This document shows, piece by piece, positions 13,793-57,106 of a DNA stretch of 64,000 bases. Numbering within the stretch: the stretch's first letter is position 1; every line of letters starts with the position of its first letter. The translations under genes and the position numbers were made by a program. This DNA comes from Candidatus Cloacimonadales bacterium (lineage in GTDB: Bacteria; Cloacimonadota; Cloacimonadia; Cloacimonadales; DAONDQ01). Where the stretch lies: positions 1,952,001 to 2,016,000 of the forward strand of contig OY759316.1 of assembly GCA_963662275.1 (NCBI GenBank), read 5' to 3'. Under the pieces are notes generated by a model. It was not told the DNA's origin. It saw nothing but the letters and a program-made list of their open reading frames with translations, and ran no database searches.

Positions 13793-16700
13793 TTAATCAG
13801 TTGATGCTACAACACGGTAGAATTTCTTGCTTATTCCTACAGAATTTGTCGTCCATGTAATCCTAGTTCTGGTTCCGTTATTATCCCGCTGGTATGCACG
13901 ACTGCTCCGAATAAACTGCTCAGTAGAAGCATACTTAGAGCCTGTATTAATAGCAGAAGTTCGGGCAGAACTAAACACACCTTGTGAAGAGATATTAGTG
14001 AAAGTCCCATTCGTTGAGTCAGACGCAATGATTTTATATGAACTTGCCCCACTAACGCTATCCCAACTGATTTGAATTAACGGATCGTTCGCTGTAATCG
14101 TTATGTTTTGTGGTGTTCCGACAGAGTCTTGTCCAGCGTAAGCAATGATATACTGGCAGAAAGAGGTAATAGAATTGAACGTTACAGTATTAGCATCGGC
14201 ATCAACAGCATAAGCCTGAGTTGCCAAAGTCCATGCAGCATCTGAACTGCTGCTTCGGGTATACAATTTGAAATATTCGGGATGTGATTCATCTGCAACG
14301 GTGACGTTTTCATTCACTGAGAAAATCAGATTTGCATTGAAGCTCCCTGAGCCATAACGATTAACTATCCAGTATTGTGAATCATATACAATTATAGATC
14401 CGCTTGGATTGAGATTGGGTGCCTGATTCAATTTGGTAACAGTAACAGAAGCGCCATCATAGCTATCATAATAGATGAGAAGTCCAGTACCTGGAAAGCT
14501 GACATTTCCACTGATTTCTTCACGGGTATAAGTATTACCCTGTCCGAAGGGAATTGTTGAGGAGCACCAAGAACCGCTGCTCATATTGGTCAACGTTCCA
14601 TTTAAACCGGAGATAAGTTCATTTGCAGAAGAACCGCTATTATCATTGAACTGCCAGTAGGCAACCAAACCTGTTTCATTCCCTGATAATGGTAAACTGG
14701 CATTTTCCCTGATTTGCTGCGCAGATAGGGCAACATTCCATAATCTGACTTCATCCATTAGTCCTTTGTATAATTGGGTCCCACTGGTTCCGGAACCAAT
14801 TACCTTATTACTTGTATTATTCACAAAGGTATAATTAGCATCCGAGATAAGAGACATCTCCTGACCGTTAACATATATTTTATGAGTTCCTGCTCCGGTG
14901 CCGCTTCTTGTATAGACAATATGATTCCACATACCGGGTGTAATGGCATTATCATTAGTCTGGGCTACCCAGGTGCTTAATCCTGAAACAGCAACTCTGT
15001 TTGTGCCACCGCTTCCAATCCCAATTTCCAGTTGGAATGATCCGGCGGAATTATTGAATGCGGTGGAATAGATTCCTTGCCTTGTAGTCATTATATCAGG
15101 TTTTACCCATGCCTCCAGGGAAAGGACATTGCCAGCATTTAGAACAGTGCTGTTTCCAACATTTATATAATCATCTGTTCCATCAAAAAGCAAGCAAGTT
15201 CCGGCTACACCTTCCGGACCTGTGCCTTGTGCCACAGAGAATTCACTGAATGAGGAAAGTCCTGTTAATAAGAACGTCCTGCTACTTACATTTTGGGTTG
15301 CAGTTGTGGTAATATCTGTCCAGTCAGATAAGGGATTATTTCTCTTCAAAAGTCGGACAAACTGATAATCGGCAAGCGGGATATTGGAATAATTGATAGA
15401 CAGATTGGCTGTAACGGTACCTGTTTTAAAAACACCCCAGACTGCATCAGCTCTCTGGGTTATATTCCCGGGAAAAGTCTCTGAGTCAATAACATCGGTA
15501 CCGCTTCCGGTATAATAAATCCCCAGGAAATTGCTGTTATCGGGTGTTGTTGTGATTGTAAGTGTCATTTGCTTACCTGTACTGCCGATACTTGTTGGAG
15601 TTGCAGTCCGTACAGAAGTTCCCAGCACACCCATAGAGACACTCGAATGAACCCAGCTAAAGTCTGACATATTATTCATCGTTCCGTTATACCCGTTACC
15701 GCTTAGATCAGAAACAACACTTCCGGTCACATTATTGAAGTTATAATACATCAAAAGATTAGTTGTGGGAGGTGTGGCAAATTTACACATATTATCCTGA
15801 ATCTGAGCCTGTGTACGGGCTGTATTCCACACTCTGAATTCATCCAGCTGACCATTAAAGAAACTTGACCCTGCTCTGTAACCTATCGTAAGGGGAGGAA
15901 CAGGTGCTATCCAGGGATTAACTGTTGACGTGACCAGGCTGCCATTTACATATAACTGTGAAGTAACTGCCATTCCTGCTTTAATCCAGGTTACAGCACA
16001 GTGATACCATGTATTGGTGTTCAGAGTTGAATAGATAAGAGAATTGCCTGAAGAACCAATCCAGACATATAACCTATTACTTGCTATAGTACAATAAAAG
16101 TTGGATGAGCCACTTGTTTCAGACCACAAATATCCTCCGGAGATATCATTCGCTTTAAACCAGAACTCAATCGTACCCTGGTTGGGAAGTGTGACCGGAA
16201 TTGTAATATTATCATCATTCCCATCAAAGTCAAGAGCGTTATTTAGTCGGTATGGCGTAGAGAATTCAGTGTCAGCTCCGTATCCTGTCCCGACCGCATT
16301 GGTGGCATAAGCGTGGACATGATACCTGGTATCATGTGTCAAACCTGTTAAATTGCCTGTGAAAGTACCTAATCCGGCGCCATTGGTTGTATGCAGTCCA
16401 TCTACCGTGGGATTAGCAGAAGTACTCCAGCAAATGCCTCTGGCTGTAACTGCTTCTCCGTTTTCGGAGGTAACGCTTCCTTCACAAATTGCTGCTACTG
16501 TATCTATCAATGAGATGGTATTGGTTGTTACTGTGGGCACATCATCGGTTGTAAAGGATAACTCCTCACCATAGCCTGTTCCTACTCCGTTTTTGGCATA
16601 AGCCCTGACGTAGTATTTTGTACCCTTAGCAAGTCCTGTTATTGATGCAGAGAAAGTTCCTGTACCTGTCCCGCAATAAGTTTGAGTATCTGTTATTAAA

Positions 16701-18277
16701 GGGGTAGGGGATGTTTTCCAACACACTCCTTTTTCGGTAATACTGTTGTTTCCATCGCTCGAAATAGTACCTCCGCTTCTGGCGGATCTATAATCTACAT
16801 TCGTAATTGCAGTTGTGCTGATTGTTGCAAAAGTGTCTGTAGTAAACGACAGTTCATTACCATATCCTACACCGATGCCGTTAATTGCATAAGCCCTGAT
16901 ATAATATGTTGTAGAGTGACTCAATCCTGTTATCGATGAACTAAAATAAGTAACACTACTCCCATCATTGGTGTGGGGATCTGTTACTGTGGGATTGTGA
17001 CTGGTACTCCAACAGACACCCCTCGAATAAATATATGAACCATGGTCATTCATTAAGTATCCACCGCTAGTCGCAGTTGTAACGCCAATATTTTCAATTG
17101 GACGGGTAGTTATACTGGGATAATTAGCCAGGATAAAACTCTTCTCTGTACCATATTTCGTCGTTAATTGGTCTGTTACGTATGATCGCACATAATAGGT
17201 GATTTCTGAAGTCAGGTCAGTCAGATTTGTAGTATAATGCCCGGGAACTGTTCCATAGTGTGTGTGCGAGCCGGAGATGGTCGGGTTTGGAGAAGTACCC
17301 CAACAGATACCATAGGCACTGAATGTGAGCAAAGAGTTTGGTTCTAAGGTTGCTCCAGATGTTGCAGATGAATTTGTCATAGCAGTAATGTCATCTGTAT
17401 TGATAACAGAACTTACCTCATAATGCACAATAGTAGAATGATGTTTTCCTATCAGCATGTCAAGATAACCATCATGGTCAATATCTGCAAAACAAGGTGC
17501 TGCACAAGCCAGGACTTCGGTATTTGAGAAATTAGTACTGGCAAGAGTAAATGTGTTCGAATTAACTGAGTTTTGAATATACTGATAGGTAAAACCATCA
17601 TAGTTACCCACAAATAAATCCAGAAAACCATCATTATTGTAATCTGTTACATAAGGAACAGATTCATTACCGATATCGATACCATTAAAATTGTTGGTTA
17701 CTAATACAAAACTCGAGGAATTATGTGCAGTTTGTTCAAAATGCGTTATCACTCCGCTACTCTCTCCAACTAACAAATCAAGCCTGCCATCACCATCCAG
17801 ATCACAGAAGAAAGGGTTGGCAGCTGAACCGACATAGAGACTACAAAAGTCATTGGTCACAAGTGTGAAATCAGATGAATTAGGTGCACTTTGCCTGTAA
17901 TAATAAAGATATCCTCTCTGACCTGAATAACTGTTCCCTATAATCAAATCAAGCAGTCCATCACCATCAAAATCTGTGATAGTGGGAGAAGGATATGATG
18001 CAACTACTATCCCGCTAAAAAAACTGGAGCGCTCCACAAAGGTCAAAGAGCCATAACTGCTTTGCTCCCAATGAGCTAATTTGTTACCACTGATTCCACC
18101 GAATATCAGATCAATAAGTCCATCATGATCCAAATCCGTCAGACAAGGTTTGGAAGCCATTACCGAATAACTAATATTCGAAAAGCTGTTCGTAACCAGG
18201 TTGAAATCACCTGCATGAAGGTTGGATATAAAAATTAAAAGTGCAATCAGGCAGTATCCTTTAGTAATTTTGCTCAT
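13793..18277 (-). CDS. Large secreted protein: FG-GAP/VCBS repeats, four FN3-like repeats, two LamG-like domains, non-FlgD C-terminus
   Basis: Likely start MSKITKGYCLIALL at 18277 (RBS GGAGG); the track's longer start lies inside the mobile element. DxDxDGxxDL repeats and LDEFRVWN / MDEVRLWN LamG motifs. Confidence 0.85.
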   Translation of the reverse strand: MSKITKGYCLIALLIFISNLHAGDFNLVTNSFSNISYSVMASKPCLTDLDHDGLIDLIFGGISGNKLAHWEQSSYGSLTFVERSSFFSGIVVASYPSPTITDFDGDGLLDLIIGNSYSGQRGYLYYYRQSAPNSSDFTLVTNDFCSLYVGSAANPFFCDLDGDGRLDLLVGESSGVITHFEQTAHNSSSFVLVTNNFNGIDIGNESVPYVTDYNNDGFLDLFVGNYDGFTYQYIQNSVNSNTFTLASTNFSNTEVLACAAPCFADIDHDGYLDMLIGKHHSTIVHYEVSSVINTDDITAMTNSSATSGATLEPNSLLTFSAYGICWGTSPNPTISGSHTHYGTVPGHYTTNLTDLTSEITYYVRSYVTDQLTTKYGTEKSFILANYPSITTRPIENIGVTTATSGGYLMNDHGSYIYSRGVCWSTSHNPTVTDPHTNDGSSVTYFSSSITGLSHSTTYYIRAYAINGIGVGYGNELSFTTDTFATISTTAITNVDYRSARSGGTISSDGNNSITEKGVCWKTSPTPLITDTQTYCGTGTGTFSASITGLAKGTKYYVRAYAKNGVGTGYGEELSFTTDDVPTVTTNTISLIDTVAAICEGSVTSENGEAVTARGICWSTSANPTVDGLHTTNGAGLGTFTGNLTGLTHDTRYHVHAYATNAVGTGYGADTEFSTPYRLNNALDFDGNDDNITIPVTLPNQGTIEFWFKANDISGGYLWSETSGSSNFYCTIASNRLYVWIGSSGNSLIYSTLNTNTWYHCAVTWIKAGMAVTSQLYVNGSLVTSTVNPWIAPVPPLTIGYRAGSSFFNGQLDEFRVWNTARTQAQIQDNMCKFATPPTTNLLMYYNFNNVTGSVVSDLSGNGYNGTMNNMSDFSWVHSSVSMGVLGTSVRTATPTSIGSTGKQMTLTITTTPDNSNFLGIYYTGSGTDVIDSETFPGNITQRADAVWGVFKTGTVTANLSINYSNIPLADYQFVRLLKRNNPLSDWTDITTTATQNVSSRTFLLTGLSSFSEFSVAQGTGPEGVAGTCLLFDGTDDYINVGNSTVLNAGNVLSLEAWVKPDIMTTRQGIYSTAFNNSAGSFQLEIGIGSGGTNRVAVSGLSTWVAQTNDNAITPGMWNHIVYTRSGTGAGTHKIYVNGQEMSLISDANYTFVNNTSNKVIGSGTSGTQLYKGLMDEVRLWNVALSAQQIRENASLPLSGNETGLVAYWQFNDNSGSSANELISGLNGTLTNMSSGSWCSSTIPFGQGNTYTREEISGNVSFPGTGLLIYYDSYDGASVTVTKLNQAPNLNPSGSIIVYDSQYWIVNRYGSGSFNANLIFSVNENVTVADESHPEYFKLYTRSSSSDAAWTLATQAYAVDADANTVTFNSITSFCQYIIAYAGQDSVGTPQNITITANDPLIQISWDSVSGASSYKIIASDSTNGTFTNISSQGVFSSARTSAINTGSKYASTEQFIRSSRAYQRDNNGTRTRITWTTNSVGISKKFYRVVASTD

Positions 18278-18432
18278 TCTATTCCTCCGGAATTCTCGAA
18301 TCTGAATATGTTGAACGAAGCTGCAAGCAGCAGTACCGTTCGCAGTAAACTCGTGTTTCATGCATTTAAACTATTGATATACTGAACCCTCACTAAAAGC
18401 ATACTTACCCCCAAAATTAACTGGAGGTAAGT

Positions 18433-19305
18433 ATGGAATCATACGAAGTTCGCTTTTTAGAGTGCCTTGATCTTCGAGGCGTGTCCCGAGAGACAAAATA
18501 CAATTACATCAGACAAGTCACTTCTTTAGCATCATATTATGGTCAAGACCCCGGCACACTATCTATTGAACAGGTAAGAACATATTTTGTCTACCTGCAT
18601 AACGTCAAGAATTATAGTCCTCAGAGTTTAAAATCAGCCTATTATGGCATCAGATTTTTTTTCATCCATGTTGTTGGTTTCAGGCAAGAGGATTTTACCT
18701 TTTTTAAGGCAAAGATTGAGCACAAACTTCCTGTGATTCTGACCACAGACGAAGTTAGAATGCTTATCTCCCGCATTCATACTTATGATTATCGACTCTT
18801 ACTGACTCTTACCTATCAATGCGGATTAAGGATTTCGGAAGCAGTCAAGATTAAAATAGCCGATATCAACCGGGAATTGATGACCATCACGGTAAGGCAA
18901 TCCAAAGGCAACAAAGACAGGTCAATACCTCTGCCTGAAAAATTGTATCAGGAACTCCGGGAATATTGGAAAACCCATCAGAACAGACAGCTTTTATTCC
19001 CGAGCAGAAGCACCAGACAGGCTGATATTAACAGAATGACAACCTCGAACCAGATTTCTGTCCAAACTCTTCGGTCAGCTCTGAAGTCAGCCTTAAAGGA
19101 GACACGCATCCCTAAGCATGTAACCTGTCATACACTCAGACATTCTTATGCCACACATTTATTGGAAGCAGGTGTCAGTATCATCATCATCAAAGACTTG
19201 CTCGGGCACGAAAGTCTTAGAGCGACCATGGTATACGTGCATTTGACTAACGTTTCCCGAGAGCAGTCATGTAAAATCATCAATGAACTGATGAATAAGA
19301 TGTAA
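18433..19305 (+). CDS. Tyrosine recombinase with an integron-integrase-like N-terminal SAM domain
   Basis: GLRISE, QSKGNK, HTLRHSYATH, LLGH and TMVY catalytic motifs. Confidence 0.92.
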   Translation: MESYEVRFLECLDLRGVSRETKYNYIRQVTSLASYYGQDPGTLSIEQVRTYFVYLHNVKNYSPQSLKSAYYGIRFFFIHVVGFRQEDFTFFKAKIEHKLPVILTTDEVRMLISRIHTYDYRLLLTLTYQCGLRISEAVKIKIADINRELMTITVRQSKGNKDRSIPLPEKLYQELREYWKTHQNRQLLFPSRSTRQADINRMTTSNQISVQTLRSALKSALKETRIPKHVTCHTLRHSYATHLLEAGVSIIIIKDLLGHESLRATMVYVHLTNVSREQSCKIINELMNKM

Positions 19306-20448
19306 ATGGATTTTAGCAGGATTCTCAAAAACAACCTGTCCGAGTATCTGGAAAAATATGGAAACCAGTCACCGGAAAGCCATTTAAGAGCGATCAGAGA
19401 TATTCTCCTTTGCCGGACACCTGAACTGGGCGGAGAAGTCTATTTATGCCAGGAATGTGCGGAACTGCATTATTCCTATCATTCCTGCAAAAACCGTCAC
19501 TGCCCGAAGTGTGGCCGTAATGATTCAGCGAAATGGCTGGAAAAGCAGCTTGCCAAACTGCTGCCGGTTAAGTACTTCATGGTAACTTTCACCATACCCC
19601 GGGAACTGCACAAAACATGCCTGTCAAATCAGAAACTGCTTTATGATCTTCAGTTCAAAGCATCATCTGAAGCCTTAAAGACATTGCTTTCAGATCCCAA
19701 ATATGCCGGTGGCGTTTCAGGCTTTACCGGGGTACTTCATACCTGGACAAGGCAGCTTGAATATCATCCTCATATTCATTATATAGTCCCCGGCGGAGCT
19801 TGGAATAAAGAACGAAAGGAATGGCAAAAAGCAGGCAATAAGTTCCTGATTCCGGTCAAAGCTCTTTCGGTGATTTACCGGGCAAAATTCCGTGATTTGC
19901 TTCGACTGGAAAATCAGCATCTGTTTGGTCGGATATCCCCGCTAGTCTGGCAGCAAAAAGAGTTTGTCACAGACTCCCGACCCGTCGGAAAAGGTCGGGA
20001 GGCTCTGACTTATTTGGCCAATTATGTGTATCGGACCGCCATCACCAACAATCGCATCCTTTGGGAAAAGGACGGGCTGGTAACCTTTAAATACAAGCCG
20101 GCAGGTTCAGCTAAATTCGCCTTTAAAAGCGTCGACTCCGTGGAGTTTATCAATAAGTTCCTGATGCATGTTCTGCCGCAGGGATTTCAGAAAATCAGAT
20201 ACTACGGATTTCTCAGTCCGGCGGCAAAATCTGTCTGGGAGATGGTCAACAGCTTTTTCCCAGCAAAGTCCGATTCTAATGACAAGAATCAGACAGCTAA
20301 AACTTTTGTAATTCCCAAATTTGAAAAAGACCTCTGCCCTAATTGCAAATCAAAGATGACACAGCATGCTTCAATTACCGGAAAACCAAGATCACCGCCT
20401 TGGTCGCTGTTGTTTTTGGCAAATTGCTTTGATGGCGGTAAACTGTAA
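19306..20448 (+). CDS. IS91-family rolling-circle transposase (Zn-binding domain plus HUH Y2)
   Basis: CRT..CQEC..SCKNRHCPKC, HTW..HPHIH, YLANY, IRYYG and C-terminal RSPP. Starts immediately after the recombinase stop. Confidence 0.92.
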   Translation: MDFSRILKNNLSEYLEKYGNQSPESHLRAIRDILLCRTPELGGEVYLCQECAELHYSYHSCKNRHCPKCGRNDSAKWLEKQLAKLLPVKYFMVTFTIPRELHKTCLSNQKLLYDLQFKASSEALKTLLSDPKYAGGVSGFTGVLHTWTRQLEYHPHIHYIVPGGAWNKERKEWQKAGNKFLIPVKALSVIYRAKFRDLLRLENQHLFGRISPLVWQQKEFVTDSRPVGKGREALTYLANYVYRTAITNNRILWEKDGLVTFKYKPAGSAKFAFKSVDSVEFINKFLMHVLPQGFQKIRYYGFLSPAAKSVWEMVNSFFPAKSDSNDKNQTAKTFVIPKFEKDLCPNCKSKMTQHASITGKPRSPPWSLLFLANCFDGGKL

Positions 20449-20784
20449 GTTAATTTTACCGACGGGATTGTCTTGCCTAAATTATAGAAACAACCGAAAT
20501 ATTACAGGCAATTTGCTAAAATACTTGAAAACAATATCAGCCCATACACAAAAAGTCTGATCTCAAAGTGATTTGATAACTTCTGAAAAGAAAATCATCT
20601 CTTCCATTGGTAAAAGACTCTGCTAAAATTGTAAAAATCCAATTCAACCCAAGAAATCTTCAAAAAGCAATTTCCAAATACATATTCAAAATCACCCTGC
20701 TACTTGAGCTTGTTCAACAGCATATCCAATCATGTCTATGATGGGAAATGCTTATTATGTTATACTTCATTATTTAAGTATATG

Positions 20785-20800
20785 AGCATTTTAGATGCCA
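20785..20800 (-). promoter_or_regulatory. sigma54 promoter of the FG-GAP gene, now separated from it by the element
   Basis: Minus strand TGGCATCTAAAATGCT = GG-N10-GC. It would lie about 60 bp from the ATG at 18277 if the element were removed. Confidence 0.7.
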
Positions 20801-20883
20801 AAGCCATATATGCATTCCTTTCAGTAGTTTATATTTCGTATCGTTAATTTATATCAGGATTTTACTGTATTTCCTGTTATAAA

Positions 20884-20990
20884 TGGTCATTATTGACCAG
20901 TATGTTTTTACTTTTTGAAGGAGAGATCCTCAAATATCAATTCTAAGACTCTCTGAGCGAGTAAGATAGTGATATGGTCGATAATGACCG
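20884..20990. promoter_or_regulatory. Pair of putative enhancer palindromes, TGGTC-N6-GACC
   Basis: TGGTCATTATTGACCA at 20884 and TGGTCGATAATGACCG at 20975. Confidence 0.65.
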
Positions 20991-21130
20991 GAGAATTGAA
21001 TATGTTGGTTTATTTGTATTTGAACCTTGGTTAAGCTCTGAATCCCATCGGGATGAAGGATAATAACGAAAGTCGTTCATGGAATTGCTATTTGCCCTGG
21101 ATCTTCTGAAGTGCCAAAGAAGAAAAGAGC

Positions 21131-21397
21131 ATCAAACTCTCCGACACTAAAGTGCCACCTCCCTTCATCTGAAGGGAGGAATTCAGCAGGAACGGCGTTC
21201 AGGGACGTACGAAGTGCGAAGTGCGAAGTACGAATGCAGAAAGCAGGAACGGCGTCCTACTCTACGCGGCAGACAGTAAGATCGGCATCTTACTCCACAG
21301 CTCAGCAGGAACAGATTCATACCCTATACAGCAGACAGTAAGATTGGCATCTTACTCCACAATTTAGAAGAGGATAGACACATGGGTCTATCCCTAC
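21131..21397. repeat. Mosaic of REP-like modules (CCTCCCTT hairpin, heptamer tract, GTAG/GTGG REPs)
   Basis: 21131-21182 matches the reverse complement of about 38980-39029; GAAGTGC heptamers; AGCAGGAACGGCGTCCTACTCTAC; AGTAAGATCGGCATCTTACTCCAC. Confidence 0.75.
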
Positions 21398-40671: not shown

Positions 40672-41302
40672 AATACCTCCCTAACGTCCACCTATTAACA
40701 TAATTTAATATAATATAATTGTGCAATGAATATTCCAAAGTTAATTAGGTCAAGGCTTTTTGTTTTGTTCTGCTCTAGTCTCTATCATCTTCTGCAATGC
40801 CCTGTCAGCTATCAGCTATAAGCTTCTGCACTGCCAATTCTTAATTCTTCACTCTTAATTCTTAATTAAGCGAAGCGTTAAGCCTTCTGCCAGTCTGCCA
40901 ATTCATCGCATTTCACTTGTTTCAATCCTTGTTATGATGGATAGTGGTTATAGACCTGTCCGCTGTACCCTGTCCGCTGTCCGCTTCTGGTGAGTTTCAA
41001 TCCTTGTTATGATGGATAGTGGTTATAGACGGTAAGTATCTGCATCCATAAAATAGTCATATCCTTGTTTCAATCCTTGTTGCATATTCCGCTCAGAAAA
41101 GCCACCTTGTCCGATTAAGTTGAGCCAGTGCTCCACTATAATTGAGCCATACTATATTGTCTTTTTGAGCCACACTACGTATCTGATCGCCATATAACAT
41201 AATATCTGCAGTGTTTGGCAAGATTCTGTTCCGGCTGCTGCGGAGAGAGGACGTAGTCCGAGCGAAGCAGCAGCCGGAACGTTGCGCCTAATGGGCAATA
41301 GG

Positions 41303-42058
41303 CTATTTTCTATTGATTTGTTTTATTCCCTTGCGTTCTCTCATTGACATCTTCCCATCGATAAATATATGGTGAGAGTTATGAACAAGCCGGTCAAGGA
41401 TGGCATCAGCGAGAGTGGGTTGTCCAATCTTCTCGTGCCATCCTCCGGTTTTGAACTGAGAGCACAAGACCGTAGATGCTTTGGAATACCTCATCTCGAC
41501 TATTTCAAAGAGATCTTTAGCTTCCTGTTCGTTTATCCTGGTTAACAGCCATTCATCAAGTATCAGCAGTTTAGCATTGGCATATCTGTCTATGACTCTT
41601 TGATGCCCGCCTTCACAACGACTAACAGCGAGGTCATCCAACAGTTCAGGCAGGCGGACGTATTTTACAGTGAAGTATTTCTTGCAGGCAGCTATGCCAA
41701 ATGCGCAAGCCAGCCATGTTTTACCGCTTCCCGATGCTCCGGTGATGATGATATTCTCATTCTCTCCAATAAAAGAACATGACGCCAATTCAACGATTGC
41801 ACTACGATCAAGTTTCCTGTCTTCATGGTAGTCAATATCTGCTATACTCGCATTACTGAACTTGAAGCCGGCACCGTGAATCAGACGTTTAAGCCTATTA
41901 TTCTTGCGCTTATCCCATTCTATATCAACCAGCATGCCAAAGCGCTCGTCAAAGCTGTAGTTTTCCAGTGATTTATCGTTAACCTGATTTCGGTAGGCAT
42001 CTGCCATGCCATTTAACAGCATCTCTCGAAGTTTAATGATAGTAGTATTATTAGTCAT
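41303..42058 (-). CDS. istB: IS21 helper ATPase
   Basis: GASGSGKT, LLILDE, DAILDRL. Start taken at MTNNTT. Confidence 0.92.
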   Translation of the reverse strand: MTNNTTIIKLREMLLNGMADAYRNQVNDKSLENYSFDERFGMLVDIEWDKRKNNRLKRLIHGAGFKFSNASIADIDYHEDRKLDRSAIVELASCSFIGENENIIITGASGSGKTWLACAFGIAACKKYFTVKYVRLPELLDDLAVSRCEGGHQRVIDRYANAKLLILDEWLLTRINEQEAKDLFEIVEMRYSKASTVLCSQFKTGGWHEKIGQPTLADAILDRLVHNSHHIFIDGKMSMRERKGIKQINRK

Positions 42059-43603
42059 TTTCGTTTCTCCCGTAGTAACCTGATTCCCGGCTGATGGCAT
42101 ACTCTGAGCTTTGCACCGCTTCAGCATCATTATCGGTGCTTCTCTTCTGTTCATTTGAGTTTAGAATAGTCTTGATGATCCTGTAACTCGGATTTGGCGT
42201 GTAGCTTAATGCTCGTTGACAGGCACTTTCCAAATTTTGACAACCATACTTTTTTGAAGCGCTTAGCACAGCCATGCAAGTGCGATAACCTTGCTGTTCA
42301 ACCCGGCATGATCCCAGGATTGACTTGATTACCAACTCAGTGCTTGTTCCAATAGTACAAGCCCAGTCAACAAAACTTTCTGCATCCCATTTACGGTATT
42401 CCTGATGATCCCTGGGCATATGCTCGGCATTGGTCTGATATCGCTCAGAGTTTCCCTCCAAGCCCCTGTGGGAGGCTATTCTGACTGAATTGTAAAAGAC
42501 CTCCACCACCCTGGCGGTTAGGCGAATATCCACTTTGTGGTGGATATATTCATAAGGCACTGAATAATACTTCTTATCAACCATAATGTGATAGTTGTAA
42601 CCAACCGTTGCTGTAGCCCATGTAGCCAGTTCATAAGCCGCCTCCGGCAAGGGAAGCAGCTGCTCTCGTTCTTCTTGCCAAAATACGCTTTCACGGGAGC
42701 CATCTTTGACCTGGAAAGGCTGAAAGGCTTACTGTTAAATTCAGCCAACTTTTCCCTGATTGCCTTATTGAGTTCTCTAAGCGAGAAGAAACTCCTGTTG
42801 CGAAGAGCAGCCAGAATCCAGGTCGAGATAATACCTACTGTCCCTTCAGCACTTGCCTTATCCTTGGGATGCCTGACCCTGGCAGGGATGACCACTGTAT
42901 TGTAGTAATTAGCCAGTTCATTATATGTCCTGTTGATTACACTGCCTCCACTGGATACCCGCTCCACACCAGTCTTGAGGTTGTCAGGTACCAGTATTTT
43001 TGCCACTCCGCTCATATATTGAAAACAGTTTACATGAGCCTGAATCCAGTTACACAGACTCATATTGGGAAGTGCTTCAACATAAGCATAGCCACTATAG
43101 GGCAAAACAGCGACAAAGACTGGAACTTTAAGCTGTGCCCCGGTAAGATTGTTTGTCAAATACGCAGATTGACCTGCCCAATCAACCTCAAGCTTCTCAC
43201 CCGGCTTGTGATGAATGCGCATGGTTGCCTTGGTTTGATGAGCATATTCCGTGTAAAGCTCGCAGAATCGACTGTATTGATAGGGTATCGTCTGATTCTG
43301 ACGGCATAACTCCGAATATTCATGCCATAACAACGACAAGGTTACACCGCTTTTACCCAATTCCTTGTGAATATGCTCAAAATCAGGCATCCTGCGACAA
43401 CCTTCGATATTTACAATGGGAAATAGCATCTTCCCCAATTCCCTGTCACTAATTGTATCAGAAATTGGCCAGAAAACAGCTTGTTGGGCTGCTGCCCTCA
43501 GCACCTTGGATACGGTATTGCGGGAGCACGGCAGGCTTTGAGCAATATTCCTTTCACTAATTCCTTGCGCCTGTAAACGCAAGATTTCTCGATAATTGGT
43601 CAT
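42051..43603 (-). pseudogene. istA: IS21 transposase, frameshifted
   Basis: VDWAG, PDNLK and PKDKASAE DDE motifs. The tandem duplication GAAAGGCT (42714-42729) splits it into two ORFs. Confidence 0.9.
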
Positions 43604-45184
43604 TTTGTGACCTCCATTGTGTTATTTGCGCTCTTCAGCGCATTGCCACATGGTTAATCACACTCTGATTTATGCAAGGTGGCTCAAAGTAGAATATTCC
43701 CTGGCTCAATTATAGTGGAGCACTGGCTCAACTTGGGAATACTCATGGCTCAAATTCATAATATTATTCAACTTGTTATGATGGATAGTGGTTATAGACC
43801 GTGTCCTCTACTTTTAACAAGTTTAGGTACTCTACGTTTCAATCCTTGTTATGATGGATAGTGGTTATAGACGCTAAGTTATTGATAGTCAAGAAGTTAG
43901 AAATGAGTTTCAATCCTTGTTATGATGGATAGTGGTTATAGACAAATGTGACCACTGAATGCTTAGCAATGTAGAAAATGTTTCAATCCTTGTTATGATG
44001 GATAGTGGTTATAGACTTCACAGGAATTTCGTATGTATGAATATTTTTAACAAGTTTCAATCCTTGTTATGATGGATAGTGGTTATAGACCCTTATCCAT
44101 TTTCTTCATACTTGCCACGTTTTCTAAGTTTCAATCCTTGTTATGATGGATAGTGGTTATAGACATTCCTTGTCACTTCTATTAGTAGCTGGTTCAAATA
44201 TGTTTCAATCCTTGTTATGATGGATAGTGGTTATAGACTCCTTGCTTTGTTTGGCAGTTTCAAGAATTGACATGTTTCAATCCTTGTTATGATGGATAGT
44301 GGTTATAGACAATACATATTTTTACTTATGAAGATTTGATAGAATGTTTCAATCCTTGTTATGATGGATAGTGGTTATAGACGGAATTAACTTCTTTATT
44401 GGCAATTCTTGAAACTGTGTTTCAATCCTTGTTATGATGGATAGTGGTTATAGACAAATGTATTCAAAGTAACACTACCAGAACTAGTGAAGTTTCAATC
44501 CTTGTTATGATGGATAGTGGTTATAGACCTTAAAAGTAAGTTGTCAACTGAATTGCAAAATCTGGTTTCAATCCTTGTTATGATGGATAGTGGTTATAGA
44601 CGGAGATGTTATGGACACTGACACTGACATTACAATGTTTCAATCCTTGTTATGATGGATAGTGGTTATAGACTTCAGTTGTGGTTCTGGAGTTACCATA
44701 ATTGAAAGAAGTTTCAATCCTTGTTATGATGGATAGTGGTTATAGACGCTTCATTCTCTGAGGGAGTTTGATGCAGAATACCGGTTTCAATCCTTGTTAT
44801 GATGGATAGTGGTTATAGACGAAATCAGTTGCATGTTCGAGCAGGGTATTGACATGTTTCAATCCTTGTTATGATGGATAGTGGTTATAGACACGCTAAT
44901 ACATAGACGGCAAATGATCCTGTGATTAGTTTCAATCCTTGTTATGATGGATAGTGGTTATAGACTTCATTCCACACCAACTACAATCATCGTTACAAAC
45001 ATGTTTCAATCCTTGTTATGATGGATAGTGGTTATAGACTTACGATTGGAATGACATTGGCTATATAAGAGGTCAGTTTCAATCCTTGTTATGATGGATA
45101 GTGGTTATAGACAGGAATAAATCCGATAATGGTTATATATCAGGAAGGTTTCAATCCTTGTTATGATGGATAGTGGTTATAGAC

Positions 45185-45414
45185 TCGTCTGGATGCTCAA
45201 ACACAAGTAAGACAAGCAATTGTCTTCAAAACTCAGAAGAGGATAACACGAGTAAATAACCAAAAATAGCATAAAAACTCCTTATTTTCTTTGTATCGGA
45301 CATATTTTAACACTCTATATACCAGTCAAATAACAAATCATTTCAAATAAAGTCAATAAATATCTCTCGGAAAATAAACTCGAATTCCCTAAGATTGGAA
45401 TCTTAGACCACGAT
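45185..45414 (-). promoter_or_regulatory. CRISPR leader
   Basis: AT-rich non-coding stretch on the cas side, upstream of the array in the ATTGAAAC orientation. Confidence 0.65.
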
Positions 45415-45530
45415 ATAGCAGGAACGGCGTCCTACTCTATGCAGATAGCAGGAACGGCGTCCTACTCTACGCAGATAGCAAGAACGGCGTCCTACTCTAC
45501 GCAGATAGCAAGAACGGCGTCTTGCTTTAC
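45415..45530. repeat. Four tandem 30 bp GTAG-type REP units
   Basis: ATAGCA(G/A)GAACGGCGTCCTACTCTA(T/C)GCAG repeated; the last unit has the covariant AGCAAGA..TCTTGCT. Confidence 0.85.
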
Positions 45531-45531
45531 A

Positions 45532-46125
45532 TTACTTATCGCATAGATTGCGATAACAGCAATCCTGGCAGCGGACTTTACTTGTGGAAGCACCCGGATA
45601 CCAGGCATAGTTAATGATCCGAAAGACATCATCTACTATCTTCAACGTCTGTTTCTTAAGTTTATCTGTGATCTTTAATTCTTCCAGATGATTATTACTG
45701 CGAATATAGACGATATAGGCTTTTTCCACTTTTTTACTGAACATCTCTTCTGCAAGCAGGGCATACATAGTCTGTTGGATTCTGAATGTGGAGAATATCT
45801 TGTCTTTCCATTCTGCATATTTATAATCCAATATCGCAGCATTTCCATCAGCAAGGAAAAGCACTTCATCAGCTATACCAACCATTTTCAATTTCTCAGA
45901 ACTCATATAGACATTCAGTTCTTTTCCGATACTTCCAATTTTCTGACGAAGGTAATCTTTATTGGTCACCAGTTTTCTTTCATGCAGAGTCCGTCCTTTT
46001 TGAACAAGGGTTCTTCTTTGTTCATGTTGGTCAATTTTCAAGACGTTCAGGTAGTAGGTGAACCTCGGACAGAAAAGGTATTCTATCACATCAGAGGGGG
46101 TGATGAAGGTGAAAAGTTCAGACAT
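45532..46125 (-). CDS. cas4: CRISPR-associated Cas4
   Basis: FCPR, G..D...DYK, Q..Y, C..C.Y...C. Confidence 0.92.
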   Translation of the reverse strand: MSELFTFITPSDVIEYLFCPRFTYYLNVLKIDQHEQRRTLVQKGRTLHERKLVTNKDYLRQKIGSIGKELNVYMSSEKLKMVGIADEVLFLADGNAAILDYKYAEWKDKIFSTFRIQQTMYALLAEEMFSKKVEKAYIVYIRSNNHLEELKITDKLKKQTLKIVDDVFRIINYAWYPGASTSKVRCQDCCYRNLCDK

Positions 46126-51549: not shown

Positions 51550-52142
51550 TCTCCTTTTTTTCTTTGAATTGTTTATTAAGTGTCATACCGAGAGTAAAAT
51601 TAAAGCTAATATCATCATTAGGCATCTTACTGAAATCAGACTCAATAAACAATGACGCGATATTGCTTTCCAAATCTCGATAGTAATTCTTATCATACTG
51701 ATTCAATTTTTCTACTATTTCAGTATAAAGCCTTTGTACCATTTGCGGATTTAACTTCATATTGTTCAGCTTTGAACGAAATGGAGTAGAATCTGTTTGT
51801 TGCTTTGTGATATCCATCAGGTGTTGGCATAACATAATAAGCATTTCCCATCATAGACATGATTGGATATGCTGTTGAACAAGCTCAAGTAGCAGGGTGA
51901 TTTTGAATATGTATTTGGAAATTGCTTTTTGAAGATTTCTTGGGTTGAATTGGATTTTTACAATTTTAGCAGAGTCTTTTCCAATGGAAGAGATGATTTT
52001 CTTTTCAGAAGTTATCAAATCACTTTGAGATCAGACTTTTTGTGTATGGGCTGATATTGTTTTCAAGTATTTTAGCAAATTGCCTGTAATATTTCGGTTG
52101 TTTCTATAATTTAGGCAAGACAATCCCGTCGGTAAAATTAAC

Positions 52143-53285
52143 TTACAGTTTACCGCCATCAAAGCAATTTGCCAAAAACAACAGCGACCAAGGCGGTGAT
52201 CTTGGTTTTCCGGTAATTGAAGCATGCTGTGTCATCTTTGATTTGCAATTAGGGCAGAGGTCTTTTTCAAATTTGGGAATTACAAAAGTTTTAGCTGTCT
52301 GATTCTTGTCATTAGAATCGGACTTTGCTGGGAAAAAGCTGTTGACCATCTCCCAGACAGATTTTGCCGCCGGACTGAGAAATCCGTAGTATCTGATTTT
52401 CTGAAATCCCTGCGGCAGAACATGCATCAGGAACTTATTGATAAACTCCACGGAGTCGACGCTTTTAAAGGCGAATTTAGCTGAACCTGCCGGCTTGTAT
52501 TTAAAGGTTACCAGCCCGTCCTTTTCCCAAAGGATGCGATTGTTGGTGATGGCGGTCCGATACACATAATTGGCCAAATAAGTCAGAGCCTCCCGACCTT
52601 TTCCGACGGGTCGGGAGTCTGTGACAAACTCTTTTTGCTGCCAGACTAGCGGGGATATCCGACCAAACAGATGCTGATTTTCCAGTCGAAGCAAATCACG
52701 GAATTTTGCCCGGTAAATCACCGAAAGAGCTTTGACCGGAATCAGGAACTTATTGCCTGCTTTTTGCCATTCCTTTCGTTCTTTATTCCAAGCTCCGCCG
52801 GGGACTATATAATGAATATGAGGATGATATTCAAGCTGCCTTGTCCAGGTATGAAGTACCCCGGTAAAGCCTGAAACGCCACCGGCATATTTGGGATCTG
52901 AAAGCAATGTCTTTAAGGCTTCAGATGATGCTTTGAACTGAAGATCATAAAGCAGTTTCTGATTTGACAGGCATGTTTTGTGCAGTTCCCGGGGTATGGT
53001 GAAAGTTACCATGAAGTACTTAACCGGCAGCAGTTTGGCAAGCTGCTTTTCCAGCCATTTCGCTGAATCATTACGGCCACACTTCGGGCAGTGACGGTTT
53101 TTGCAGGAATGATAGGAATAATGCAGTTCCGCACATTCCTGGCATAAATAGACTTCTCCGCCCAGTTCAGGTGTCCGGCAAAGGAGAATATCTCTGATCG
53201 CTCTTAAATGGCTTTCCGGTGACTGGTTTCCATATTTTTCCAGATACTCGGACAGGTTGTTTTTGAGAATCCTGCTAAAATCCAT
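52143..53285 (-). CDS. IS91-family Y2 transposase (copy 2)
   Basis: Same translation as 19306-20448. Confidence 0.92.
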   Translation of the reverse strand: MDFSRILKNNLSEYLEKYGNQSPESHLRAIRDILLCRTPELGGEVYLCQECAELHYSYHSCKNRHCPKCGRNDSAKWLEKQLAKLLPVKYFMVTFTIPRELHKTCLSNQKLLYDLQFKASSEALKTLLSDPKYAGGVSGFTGVLHTWTRQLEYHPHIHYIVPGGAWNKERKEWQKAGNKFLIPVKALSVIYRAKFRDLLRLENQHLFGRISPLVWQQKEFVTDSRPVGKGREALTYLANYVYRTAITNNRILWEKDGLVTFKYKPAGSAKFAFKSVDSVEFINKFLMHVLPQGFQKIRYYGFLSPAAKSVWEMVNSFFPAKSDSNDKNQTAKTFVIPKFEKDLCPNCKSKMTQHASITGKPRSPPWSLLFLANCFDGGKL

Positions 53286-54158
53286 TTACATCTTATTCAT
53301 CAGTTCATTGATGATTTTACATGACTGCTCTCGGGAAACGTTAGTCAAATGCACGTATACCATGGTCGCTCTAAGACTTTCGTGCCCGAGCAAGTCTTTG
53401 ATGATGATGATACTGACACCTGCTTCCAATAAATGTGTGGCATAAGAATGTCTGAGTGTATGACAGGTTACATGCTTAGGGATGCGTGTCTCCTTTAAGG
53501 CTGACTTCAGAGCTGACCGAAGAGTTTGGACAGAAATCTGGTTCGAGGTTGTCATTCTGTTAATATCAGCCTGTCTGGTGCTTCTGCTCGGGAATAAAAG
53601 CTGTCTGTTCTGATGGGTTTTCCAATATTCCCGGAGTTCCTGATACAATTTTTCAGGCAGAGGTATTGACCTGTCTTTGTTGCCTTTGGATTGCCTTACC
53701 GTGATGGTCATCAATTCCCGGTTGATATCGGCTATTTTAATCTTGACTGCTTCCGAAATCCTTAATCCGCATTGATAGGTAAGAGTCAGTAAGAGTCGAT
53801 AATCATAAGTATGAATGCGGGAGATAAGCATTCTAACTTCGTCTGTGGTCAGAATCACAGGAAGTTTGTGCTCAATCTTTGCCTTAAAAAAGGTAAAATC
53901 CTCTTGCCTGAAACCAACAACATGGATGAAAAAAAATCTGATGCCATAATAGGCTGATTTTAAACTCTGAGGACTATAATTCTTGACGTTATGCAGGTAG
54001 ACAAAATATGTTCTTACCTGTTCAATAGATAGTGTGCCGGGGTCTTGACCATAATATGATGCTAAAGAAGTGACTTGTCTGATGTAATTGTATTTTGTCT
54101 CTCGGGACACGCCTCGAAGATCAAGGCACTCTAAAAAGCGAACTTCGTATGATTCCAT
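53286..54158 (-). CDS. Tyrosine recombinase (copy 2)
   Basis: Same translation as 18433-19305. Confidence 0.92.
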   Translation of the reverse strand: MESYEVRFLECLDLRGVSRETKYNYIRQVTSLASYYGQDPGTLSIEQVRTYFVYLHNVKNYSPQSLKSAYYGIRFFFIHVVGFRQEDFTFFKAKIEHKLPVILTTDEVRMLISRIHTYDYRLLLTLTYQCGLRISEAVKIKIADINRELMTITVRQSKGNKDRSIPLPEKLYQELREYWKTHQNRQLLFPSRSTRQADINRMTTSNQISVQTLRSALKSALKETRIPKHVTCHTLRHSYATHLLEAGVSIIIIKDLLGHESLRATMVYVHLTNVSREQSCKIINELMNKM

Positions 54159-55815
54159 ACTTACCTCCAGTTAATTTTGGGGGTAAGTATGCTTTTAGTG
54201 AGGGTTCAGTATATCAATAGTTTAAATGCATGAAACACGAGTTTACTGCGAACGGTACTGCTGCTTGCAGCTTCGTTCAACACTCCTGTTAAGAATACAG
54301 ATTTCTTAGCATTTGAATTAAAGTATGACGCATGTTCCTGGAAGAAGTCATTATATTTAGTATCCAAACTAACCTCCTGATCTTTGTTTGTTGGGAAATC
54401 TATACATTTTAATTCTTGCATAAAGAGAATGATTTGAAATGCTTTTAGCACAAGATGGTCGATGAATTCTCCTTTAGCAAATCTGGAAACGATCAATGAC
54501 ATGATTCTATGTGACAGATAATCATAATCATATTGCTTTTGCTGAAACGTACTTTGAACTATCTTAAGAAAAGCCTCAGTGTAATCACCTTCAATTCTGC
54601 TTTTAATCGGAAAGAAATCTTTTACAATTGAGTAGGTAAATTCAAGAGTTCCAGCTACTCCTTTTTCGTTAATGCCTTTAATATTCTTGAAAACAGAATG
54701 TTTTTCAGCTCGATCTTTTGCATTAAAAAGTGCTTTGAAGTGAGTTGGGAAAAGACCTTCAATCGATTCAAGAATAGAGAACTTAGCATTCTCTGCATCG
54801 AAAAAGAATATTGAATAATTTGCTCTGTTATTCAAATCTGACAAAAGATCAAAAACTTCATCTTCAATAGATGATACATTTACAATGTGTTTACGAGTCA
54901 TGTTCATCTGTCCAATTGATTTTCCGTTATCAGTGAAAAGCTCCAGAATTTGATTGTTAGCTTCCGATACTTTGAGAAACTCTGGTATAAGGTAATAATC
55001 AAGACCACAGAATTTATAATGAAGATAGCGATCATTGAACTGCTTTGCTCTTTCCAGCTTTAATGCACAATTCTCACAGACAGGATAGTTCTTCCAAGCT
55101 TCTTTGCGATTAAAACCGGATGCTAATGGAGCTAGTTCTGTTTTAGCTGTATAAAAATTATATGTGCTTACAAACCCCCAAACTTGAACAGAATCTCTAT
55201 GGCACAGACTACAGGTTTTATTATCTCCGATATAGACTTTATCTCCCAATGTGTAATAATCTTTGTTTCTATCTGTTATTGCTTGTTTTCGGATTTTATC
55301 GAAATCACCTGATTCTCCTATTGATTCATTGTTGATACGTATTGTAAGAATAAACAGGTCTTTCGTTTTTGAAAGGTGTTCATCAACCGATTTAGCTATA
55401 AAGCCAATATCACTCTGGATATAGTTGAAATAGGCTCTAATATCGGATCAATGCTGAGACAGTTTTTCCATATACGAAACCATTTACCTATTGCTTTAGT
55501 AGTTATCAACTGATCATCAGAATCATCAAGAAGGAAGTCTCTATCTGATACAAAGATAGTTGGGAAATCAGATACGCTGTTTGCTTGTGATCTTTTAAAA
55601 AACCACTTAGTTTGATTATCTTCTTTTTTATAATCATATAGATCAGAACCAGTAAATTGTATATTATCTTTCTCTATTTGGAAATTTAAGACAATCACCT
55701 TTTCTTTTCGATCTTCTAATTCCAATCCATAAGAATCATATTCTACTGAATCATTTGGTATAAATGGCTCAAGATTGATTAATTTCTGTATCATTCTTTC
55801 TCCTTCATCACAACA

Positions 55816-55957
55816 ACTCTTAACAAGCAGAACAGACAGTAAGCTCGGCATCTTACTCCACTCAGACAGCAGGAACGGCGTCCTGCTCTACGACACAAAA
55901 CAGTAAGATCGGCATCTTACTCCACGCAGACAGCAGGAACGGAGTCCTGCTCTACGA
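55816..55957. repeat. REP cluster (four alternating units) between cas6 and cas8b, flanked by a 16 bp direct repeat
   Basis: CTCCTTCATCACAACA at 55800-55815 and 55958-55973. Confidence 0.8.
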
Positions 55958-56614
55958 CTCCTTCATCACAACACCGAACCCTCTAGCGCTTTGTTTTCCC
56001 AGACCAACAAAGTCAGGCAGGTCGAAGTTCATGACAAATTTCCCTTTAAAACCGAGCATTTTCTGATTTTTGAAATTCATCTGCGTTTCTTCAAAGAAGC
56101 CATCCACCTTTATTTGCTCAATATCAGGTATCTGATAGACAAAGCCTTTAGAGATGGTTTTCAGATTCTCTCTCAGTATGTGACGCAGGAACTTCTGACG
56201 TTCAATTGTATCTAATGATATATAGGTTTTGTGATTTTCTTCCTTCAGAGCCATCCAGGGGGACAGGAAAGAATACTTCTGATATGTTGATGTAGCACCA
56301 AAGTCATATTCGCCTAAAAATACTTCCCTATCATGGGCAGGATATATCGTCTGGTTGATTCTTATTTCATTTGTGCGAAAGAAGATGTCCTTGAGTATGT
56401 GAATGCCTTCATTCATCGCCATGAGAGCTGGATGGTTATCAATCATGCGATATTGTATGACCGGATATTTATAGGAAAACGTGTTATCGGGTAAGTGGTT
56501 ATGGAGTTGAGTATGCTCTGGAAATTGATGTGAGAACCAGCCGCGCAGCTTCGGTATATCCTGTGGCTGCAATTGAATATCCGTAAATTTCATGGTTAAG
56601 ATCGTTACTTTCAT
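55952..56614 (-). CDS. cas6: Cas6 endoribonuclease (Cas6b-like)
   Basis: LHNH, YPVIQY, F.SPW.AL and C-terminal GLGKQSARGFG loop. Confidence 0.92.
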   Translation of the reverse strand: MKVTILTMKFTDIQLQPQDIPKLRGWFSHQFPEHTQLHNHLPDNTFSYKYPVIQYRMIDNHPALMAMNEGIHILKDIFFRTNEIRINQTIYPAHDREVFLGEYDFGATSTYQKYSFLSPWMALKEENHKTYISLDTIERQKFLRHILRENLKTISKGFVYQIPDIEQIKVDGFFEETQMNFKNQKMLGFKGKFVMNFDLPDFVGLGKQSARGFGVVMKES

Positions 56615-56906
56615 CAGAACACCTTTCCTCTACATCAATATAGATGTTATTATGTTTGGTGATACTACCAAGATGAAGTTACACTTAATATTTACAGAAT
56701 ATCTAAAGGAAATTTAAATGTTTGTTGTCAATTGAAAAATTCAATTATTAGGTGTCCTTTCCAGTTTCTCACGATACTGTGTATGATACGTCATCTCTCC
56801 GAGATTCAGAGGGAAGCATGTCTGGGTTCATTTCACCGGATTAAAATCCAGTGTTAATATCTTTCTTCCCTCTGGGAATTTGGTTAAATGTAGACTTACT
56901 TTACTA

Positions 56907-57106
56907 CCGCGTAAATGCGGAGCTACTATAAGAATGATCGGCATCCTACTCTACAACCGCGTAAATGCGGAGCTACTCATAAGAATGAACGTCGTCCTAC
57001 TCTTCAACCGAGTAAATGCGGAGCTACTCATAAGAATGAACGTCGTCCAATTCTTCAACCGCGTAAATGCGGAGCTACTATAAGAATGAACGACGTCCTA
57101 CTCAAC
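56907..57106. repeat. Four tandem units of about 50 bp
   Basis: CCGCGTAAATGCGGAGCTACT(C)ATAAGAATGAACGTCGTCCTACTC..CAA; the second half resembles a decayed GTAG REP. Confidence 0.8.

Follow-up and report, generated by a model that had tools for sequence, protein, structure and literature searches.

A recombinase-bearing IS91-type insertion sequence in a Candidatus Cloacimonadales bacterium, with joined ends predicted to fold into an attC-like hairpin

The element and its two genes

The element described here lies in a 64,000-nucleotide stretch of the genome of a Candidatus Cloacimonadales bacterium (GenBank assembly GCA_963662275.1, contig OY759316.1, positions 1,952,001 to 2,016,000 of the forward strand), called the window below; unless another locus is named, positions are those of the window. 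It is an intact two-gene insertion sequence (IS) of 2.45 kb, occupying 18309–20763, in which a tyrosine recombinase gene is followed by a gene for an IS91-family transposase of the Y2/HUH type. An earlier note on this DNA, made from the letters alone, had proposed that the element's ends, once joined, rebuild a bulged hairpin like the attC sites of integrons, and that the recombinase integrates through this fold single-stranded circles supplied by the HUH protein. The parts of the element, and its second copy in the window, are as follows.

18309..18333, forward strand: left end (left inverted repeat, IRL), comprising TGTT, a GAAC box (with an R'-like GTTGAAC at 18310–18316), one extra base and then AAGCT onward; compared over 13 copies.
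18320..18331, forward strand: short GC hairpin of the left end, GCTGC..GCAGC, found at the same distance from the end in relatives, IS91 and IS1294.
18400..18435, forward strand (15-pair stem scored on the other strand): stem-loop over the ribosome-binding site (RBS) and ATG of the recombinase gene, from a terminator-like scan.
18433..19305, forward strand: tyrosine recombinase gene, 290 amino acids (aa); Pfam Phage_integrase (2.1e-36) and Phage_int_SAM_4.
19306..20448, forward strand: IS91-family Y2/HUH transposase gene, 380 aa; Pfam Y2_Tnp (9.6e-47) and Zn_Tnp_IS91 (8.8e-31).
20697..20719, forward strand: subterminal right inverted repeat (IRR), ending in an R''-like GTTCAAC (20712–20718) and then A; its duplex with the left end scores −20.2 kcal/mol.
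20720..20751, forward strand: inner imperfect hairpin of the right end; alone −10.3 kcal/mol, z −2.2.
20752..20759, forward strand: A/T spacer TTATTA plus TG, the one-sided bulge of the junction; right tips were compared by eye.
20760..20763, forward strand: bases TTA(T) next to the right end, derived from the target; target consensus TG|TTA in 12 of 13 copies.
51829..54282, reverse strand: second copy in the window, identical to the first save one 1-nt indel near 20612–20614.

The two genes are co-oriented and translationally coupled, the ATG of the transposase gene abutting the stop codon of the recombinase gene, and ∼310 non-coding bases follow on the 3' side of the transposase gene. The transposase scores 159.8 bits against PF04986, 106.2 bits against PF14319 and 363.3 bits against NCBIfam NF033538 (cut-off 125). 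Its HUH histidines (H154, H156 and H158) and the tyrosines of its YxxxY motif (Y236 and Y240) are invariant in all seven aligned Y2 proteins, IS91 and IS1294 included. In the recombinase, the catalytic R, K, HxxR, H and Y all align with those of VchIntIA and of a XerA-like protein from Pyrococcus. Judged by these motifs, both enzymes look intact. The stem-loop at 18400–18435 probably serves as a translational control of the element, putatively sequestering the RBS and ATG of the recombinase gene; comparable anti-Shine–Dalgarno pairings occur upstream of the recombinase gene at three related loci (L036, L037 and L040) and in the Pseudoalteromonas relative. The right-end hairpin was considered as a transcription terminator and was not flagged by the terminator scan. 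A listed open reading frame (ORF) at 13793–18361 enters the element by chance extension only.

Copies, ends and target sites

All 4.38 Mb of the assembly lie in a single contig, which contains 13 full copies of the element, two of them in the window. The copies are near-identical and the recombinase frame is open in all 13 listed, which fits a recent spread by copying out; the element is most likely, from its sequence, an active member of the recombinase-bearing IS91 subgroup. Open frames enter both ends of the second window copy (51829–54282), which suggests that it interrupts a gene. As read at 18276–18309, the first copy lies ∼20 nt upstream of the RBS of a 1,494-aa surface-protein gene and may affect its expression. 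The loop of the right-end hairpin (position 20733) reads GTCT in seven copies and GCCT in six, a split that suggests two recently expanded sublineages.

Comparison of the 13 copies defined the ends. The left end starts TGTTGAAC in 12 copies and AGTTGAAC in the remaining one (copy A), while the right end consists of the spacer TTATTA, TGTT and then A (position 20762), again in 12 copies. The deviant on the right, copy B (locus L013, G000:C1:2046490-2048937), has a normal left end, no TGTTA, one spacer base fewer and a flank other than TTA. Copy B could have arisen by insertion off target or by loss of bases next to the end; its empty site was sought in the same-genus genome G100, giving a distant flank match only. 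The ends set in the earlier note, with TGTT at both and the right end at 20761, are sound on this comparison.

Empty sites, for which that note had advised a search, were found. One contig from a related strain (run X20, flank divergence ∼10%) contains a probable empty site in which the left flank is followed by TGTT and ATACTT, the latter being the six bases that stand after TGTT at the element's right end. Since the A of position 20762 is present in this probable empty site too, it belongs to the target. The 17 empty members of a repeat family described below likewise have a single TGTT each at the insertion position. With one TGTT in each empty site and two around the element, one of the two words belongs to the element itself.

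A single TGTT in the empty site would agree equally with a shared core and with a 4-bp duplication made by cut-and-paste insertion at a strict target; under duplication, the fold of the joined ends would be a by-product of ordinary inverted repeats. However, the words flanking the element are unequal in two of the 13 copies, AGTT against TGTT in one and TGTT against a non-TGTT flank in the other (copies A and B), which argues that TGTT is not a target duplication. In addition, the subterminal box pairs through TGTT, no DDE transposase is found among the Pfam matches of the element, and to our knowledge IS91-family elements make no target duplications. We regard duplication as extremely improbable.

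The position of the crossover can be narrowed by comparison with a second multi-copy family, found at loci L014-L032 of a metagenome-assembled genome (MAG; 18 loci, both ends visible in 17), whose transposase is 38% identical to the one described here. The ends of this family share ATT, not TGTT; the preceding base is variable, most often T (14 of 17), and TT opens the right flank in 16 of 17. In copy A, the first T of TGTT is target-derived, and in copy B and at L032 the right-end TT is target-derived. Taken together, these three cases confine the crossover to the positions immediately on either side of the R in RTT, where R is G here and A in the second family; in the window copy this means 18310/18311 (G|TT) or the position one base to the left. 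As read from the sequence, this is compatible with exchange at G|TT and is not proof of it.

Target choice is far from random, since four of the 13 insertions lie at one position of a hairpin-forming repeat family of ∼110 nt (21 members by the anchor used), while the genome holds 10,609 TGTTA sites. In the repeat, a GC hairpin is enclosed by a 9-bp stem (e.g. L063:240-360, L064:150-270 and L065:140-260); as a candidate for a known RNA it was rejected, having no Rfam match (best E 0.59). Three of six relatives have a hairpin abutting TTG|TTAT on its 5' side. This preference for hairpin repeats and for positions just after hairpins points to recognition of structure or context. Three of the nine copies that could be assigned to a replication strand are co-oriented with replication; the lack of a strong bias weakly favours a target in double-stranded DNA over one in the lagging-strand template.

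The joined ends and their conservation

The junction expected in a circle was built by a script that joined 20697–20759 to 18311–18333, folded with DNA energy parameters and compared with 500 dinucleotide shuffles. It folds at −24.7 kcal/mol, against a shuffle mean of −9.5 (standard deviation 2.2; z −6.75), and none of the 500 shuffles was as stable. With their real flanks, the integrated right ends of the two window copies reach −12.7 and −12.1 kcal/mol, values owed almost wholly to the inner hairpin, and the right box then pairs with only ∼4 flank bases. Junctions of the same construction gave z −1.3 for IS91 and −0.3 for IS1294.

The hairpin of the earlier note was reproduced by this fold, with an outer stem containing one A/C mismatch and two single-base bulges, a one-sided 6-nt bulge TTATTA and an inner hairpin of 32 nt with two internal mismatches. 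Two of its descriptions need amending. The hairpin had been called contiguous only in the circle, which applies to the outer stem, as this needs the joint, and not to the inner hairpin (20720–20751), which is contiguous and folds in the integrated state. The element had also been said to have no terminal inverted repeats; this is correct for the extreme right tip, whereas the outer stem pairs 18309–18333 with the subterminal segment 20697–20719. In the joined fold, GTTCAAC (20712–20718) pairs with GTTGAAC (18310–18316), and these boxes fit the integron core consensus, RYYYAAC and GTTRRRY, respectively. The site is not one contiguous imperfect palindrome, as its R' half lies 2.4 kb away and it becomes whole only after joining.

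A phylum-wide search found a homologue of the Y2 transposase (E <= 1e-20) in 14 of 232 genomes, this one included. At nine of the 13 loci in other genomes, an upstream ORF contains a recombinase motif detected by regular expression. Two more loci have an unflagged upstream ORF of ∼300 aa, read without a family scan, and two have no ORF there, one being a broken copy and the other a homologue with 28% identity. Among plasmid homologues, the gene immediately upstream encodes a recombinase in the same orientation in all four with at least 31% identity (Herpetosiphon, Pseudoalteromonas, Photobacterium and Sinorhizobium) and in none of the three with at most 29% (IS91, IS1294 and Piscirickettsia). 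A 121-aa ORF upstream in IS91 was considered as a decayed recombinase and gave no Pfam hit at E <= 0.01. The end architecture follows the same division, being present in the four recombinase-linked plasmid elements and absent from IS91 and IS1294 (the Piscirickettsia ends were unread).

In all, the same architecture was seen in 13 recombinase-linked families from several phyla. The common left end is (T)RTTGAAC, (T/G)AA and a short GC hairpin, of which TTGAAC and (T/G)AA are kept in the 13 families. The common right end consists of a segment that can pair with the left terminus and closes with a GTTCAAC-like box, a hairpin, an unpaired A/T-rich spacer and RTT. Element boundaries were set by copy comparison in the two multi-copy families and from motifs in the others; loci L041 (right end only), L043 and L044 (variant ends) and L046 (small contig) were left out of the counts. 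The nested arrangement of stem, hairpin and one-sided spacer is the minimum free energy structure of 10 of 11 family junctions, the Herpetosiphon segment having been cut too short. Analysed by segment, all 11 have a repeat duplex of −11.0 to −20.2 kcal/mol, 5–11 nt of unpaired spacer and, in the same place, a right-end hairpin of 32–39 nt (96 nt in Herpetosiphon); two further families matched the architecture by eye.

The sequence of the hairpin arms varies between families while their pairing is kept. Likewise, the IRR:IRL duplex averages −12.8 kcal/mol for cognate pairs against −9.1 kcal/mol for pairs between groups, and none of 10,000 permutations was as good, although the 13 families tested include five close kin, so their independence is overstated. 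Covariation among homologues was another check advised by the earlier note, and the junction hairpin is indeed conserved and covarying in the recombinase-linked relatives. RNAalifold, run on a MAFFT alignment of 10 junctions, returned no consensus structure, the hairpin arms being misaligned. Locus L046, a whole MAG contig of 2332 nt, holds a related element that begins with TTGAAC and ends with a hairpin, a spacer and TTGAAC; either a tandem or circle joint or integration at a site of GTTGAAC type may account for this arrangement.

Possible mechanism, related systems and significance

Tentatively, and short of calling it probable, we favour a mechanism in which a single-stranded circle made by the HUH enzyme is integrated by the element's own recombinase. 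From what is known of the family, the Y2/HUH transposase would nick the bottom strand at the right tip, in an oriIS-like A/T motif. The strand would be peeled off by rolling-circle replication up to the terIS-like GC hairpin of the left end and sealed into a single-stranded circle, the donor copy being retained. The anatomy of the abutted ends suggests that they would fold in this circle so that GTTGAAC and GTTCAAC form an R-box-like stem, adjoined by the one-sided A/T spacer and by the right-end hairpin as an L-box-like element. The recombinase would bind this attC-like fold and exchange one strand at R|TT with TG|TTA in double-stranded DNA, preferably beside a hairpin-forming repeat, and replication would complete the insertion, as it completes the insertion of integron cassettes at attI and of CTX phage at dif. 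What is seen directly is the anatomy of the element, its copy number and target, the conservation of its ends, the link between architecture and recombinase, and the intact catalytic motifs.

The main rival, which we consider rather unlikely, is IS91-type rolling-circle transposition in which the Y2 enzyme alone makes all cuts and joins, at ori, ter and TGTTA. The subterminal box beside the hairpin would then act for the HUH enzyme, perhaps as a guide pairing with the cleavage and target word, as the guide of IS608 does, and the recombinase would be an accessory, for instance resolving tandem or cointegrate products or aiding circle conversion. IS91 is reported to form single-stranded circles and to insert without a recombinase. 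The Y2 catalytic set is invariant and both tyrosines are kept, so that joining to the target could also be the work of the transposase. The tetranucleotide on the side of the hairpin changes together with the target and left-end word, being AACA where that word is TGTT (this element) and AATA where it is TATT (second family), as a guide would also predict.

The end signals themselves bear on this rival. Compared by eye and without statistics, the left end of IS1294 has TGAAC, a few bases and a GC hairpin, like that of the present element, and the right-tip motif AT-N-C-Y-TAT-Y stands directly before the target word in this element, IS91 and IS1294; here it is the TTATTA spacer with the 3' arm of the hairpin that resembles it. 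Because the 6-nt bulge and the left-end GC hairpin occur in IS91 and IS1294, which lack the recombinase, they are best read as ori- and ter-like signals of the transposase, the TTATTA region being probably its oriIS and the GC hairpin its terIS, both putative. The TGAAC at the start of the IS1294 left end is close to GAAC, and the right end of this IS1294 copy abuts CAAG; GAAC and CAAG are targets known for the IS91 family. Since the left-end start of IS1294 thus resembles the target beside its right end, TGTT at both ends of the present element needs no recombinase by itself.

The kept tyrosines and these shared signals weigh against integration by the recombinase, and other points do so too. 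An HUH enzyme alone could explain precise ends and a repeated short end word, and covarying inverted repeats are also expected of ordinary protein-binding ends. The distal third of the outer stem (9–10 pairs) is not conserved, L036 and L037 having the same left end and no complementary right segment. Stem mismatches and wobble pairs, judged by eye in a small sample, show no consistent strand asymmetry. No circle joint was reported in the assembled contigs of four public runs that contain the element (window 17900–21200), a data type that is uninformative on this question. To these are added, from the comparison with integrons below, the absent IntI insertion, the equal closeness to XerA and the one-sided spacer.

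Transposition by the HUH enzyme alone, however, leaves unexplained why an intact and coupled recombinase gene is kept across phyla. It also does not account for the subterminal repeat and large hairpin, which occur only with the recombinase (in four of four linked plasmid elements, and in neither IS91 nor IS1294) and are, on present sequences, the recombinase-bearing subgroup's own parts, making the joint attC-like. The match of boxes and crossover to the integron pattern is likewise left unexplained, and the nine assignable copies show no replication-strand bias, unlike IS608-type targeting of single strands.

Integrons offer the closest comparison for integration by the recombinase. The IntI integrase recombines the folded bottom strand of attC with attI at G|TT, and the target GTTA of the present element resembles simple or secondary IntI sites. 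The layout of the element is also like that of a cassette, with TTRRRY at one end and RYYYAAC, a hairpin, a spacer and G at the other. The best NCBIfam match of the recombinase is the integron integrase TIGR02249, in two stretches and at 180.3 bits against a cut-off of 265, with XerA next at 172 bits; PRK15417 scores 121.6 bits against a cut-off of 435. Among solved structures, the best matches are VchIntIA (2a3v, 1e-31, in two stretches) and the XerA-like 4a8e (1.7e-31), and the scores place the recombinase equally near archaeal XerA and IntI. Its alignment with VchIntIA is interrupted from query residue 178 to 188, against residues 180–222 of the chain. What is missing is the ∼32-residue insertion specific to IntI, which binds the extrahelical bases of attC; the model positions concerned (182–213) are skipped in all 13 genomic copies. 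The recombinase is therefore, as far as its sequence goes, of IntI/Xer type and not an integron integrase.

No IntI above cut-off was found in this genome, and no attI, Pc or attC cassette array was seen adjacent to the copies, which are flanked at each site by genes unrelated to the element; no dedicated attC search was made. The central spacer of attC is roughly symmetric, whereas here it is one-sided (0–1 nt on the 5' side, 5–11 nt on the 3' side), and the inner hairpin has two mismatches or bulges. Thus the integron-type interpretation of the earlier note stands for the boxes, the G|TT-compatible crossover, the IntI matches and the conserved fold, and is weakened by the lack of the IntI insertion, the variable distal stem and the HUH-like bulge. 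Smyshlyaev, Barabas and Bateman (10.1101/542381) describe an ‘integron-like’ subgroup that includes recombinases of IS91 and IS3 transposons, these recombinases lacking the IntI insertion.

The element further differs from a cassette in that it carries its own recombinase and rolling-circle enzyme. This could mean that the recombinase performs both excision and integration, as for a cassette that encodes its own integrase, and that the Y2 enzyme only replicates or amplifies the circle, or starts strand displacement for transfer. A recombinase of IntI type would suit this arrangement, as would a cassette-like layout that starts with TTGAAC and has box, hairpin, spacer and G at its end. However, the full site exists only after joining, leaving no second full site for excision when the element is integrated; 13 copies with retained donors fit copying out better than cutting out; and ori- and ter-like Y2 signals lie exactly at the ends. 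We therefore hold this explanation to be very unlikely.

Integration of an HUH-made circle by the recombinase, our preferred reading, can be set against several known systems. The IS91 family (IS91, IS801, IS1294 and ISCR) shares the Y2/HUH enzyme with a zinc-binding N-terminus, the absence of evident duplication and the target word at the right end; it differs in that the present element has a coupled IntI/Xer-type recombinase, a subterminal repeat with a 32-nt hairpin, and TG|TTA as target in place of GAAC/CAAG. In CTX-phi, an HUH Rep protein makes single-stranded circles, XerCD integrates the folded hairpin at dif, and replication finishes the process. The proposed division of labour is alike, with an HUH enzyme for the single strand and a tyrosine recombinase for the folded site, but here the recombinase is self-encoded, the targets are many TGTTA sites and not dif, and the vehicle is a 2.45-kb IS without phage genes. 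IS608, of the IS200/IS605 group, has a Y1 HUH enzyme, a single-stranded circle, and subterminal hairpins with a guide beside the hairpin. The present element resembles it in its subterminal hairpin, in the lack of a duplication, in a target word equal to the left-end word and in the complementary tetranucleotide beside the hairpin; it differs in having a Y2 enzyme, a second recombinase and no replication-strand bias among its nine assignable copies. Lastly, certain Vibrio elements with strand-biased behaviour are reportedly much larger and have several recombinase genes. For integrative elements of Vibrio with a tyrosine recombinase, Nonaka et al. (2022, PMC9345347) report strand-biased circle formation; the accessible part of that paper mentions both CTX-type phage integration and cassette insertion at attI, and mentions no HUH enzyme.

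The pairing of an IS91 transposase with a recombinase is already catalogued, and ISfinder names such as ISWz1 and ISSod25 presumably denote IS91-family members with an upstream integrase-type ORF. As far as the accessible parts of these papers go, IS91-type transposase and ‘XerD’ pairs are described beside tetX and catB in Chryseobacterium, with no mechanism given (PMC11194056), ISWz1 is named in resistance regions of integrative and conjugative elements of Elizabethkingia, again with no mechanism (PMC11322121), and an IS91-like element is placed beside an attC site (PMC9229058). Our literature search found no proposed or tested mechanism for elements combining an IS91 transposase with a recombinase, TnPedia, ISfinder and subscription journals lying outside the search. 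What is added here is a genome with 13 copies and no integrons, in which plain TG|TTA sites are used. To this the sequence comparisons add a crossover that appears bounded to one base, a probable empty site, and a provisional separation of the HUH end signals from the fold linked to the recombinase.

Elsewhere in the window, an array of clustered regularly interspaced short palindromic repeats (CRISPR) with 22 copies of a 37-nt repeat (40911–41062 and 43755–45216) is split by a 2.6-kb insert at ∼41117–43734. The insert is bounded by 49-bp inverted repeats and contains an IstB-like ATPase ORF and a split IstA-like ORF; read from these motifs without a family scan, it is a putative IS21-type element. 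Tandem repeats of 30–62 nt sharing AGCAGGAACGGCGTCCTACTCTAC occupy intergenic positions at 21242–21365, 45415–45538, 55836–55958 and 56878–57106.

Gene mobility, including that of antibiotic resistance, has two of its major vehicles in IS91-family elements and integrons. If integration by the recombinase is true, the element would provide the third natural case in which a tyrosine recombinase recombines a folded single strand, after integrons and CTX-type phages, and the first encoded wholly by a small insertion sequence. The precise ends, targets and empty site available in a single-contig genome with 13 copies make the mechanism precisely testable. The finding would bear, moreover, on the origin of IntI and attC. 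The subgroup could be regarded as a self-propelled ‘cassette’ whose HUH enzyme makes single-stranded circles and whose joined ends are a proto-attC recombined by an IntI-like enzyme without the IntI insertion. It would then be a living relative or derivative of the ancestor of IntI and attC, and a tractable system carrying both halves of single-stranded recombination on 2.45 kb, a conjecture that we judge doubtful and well short of likely.

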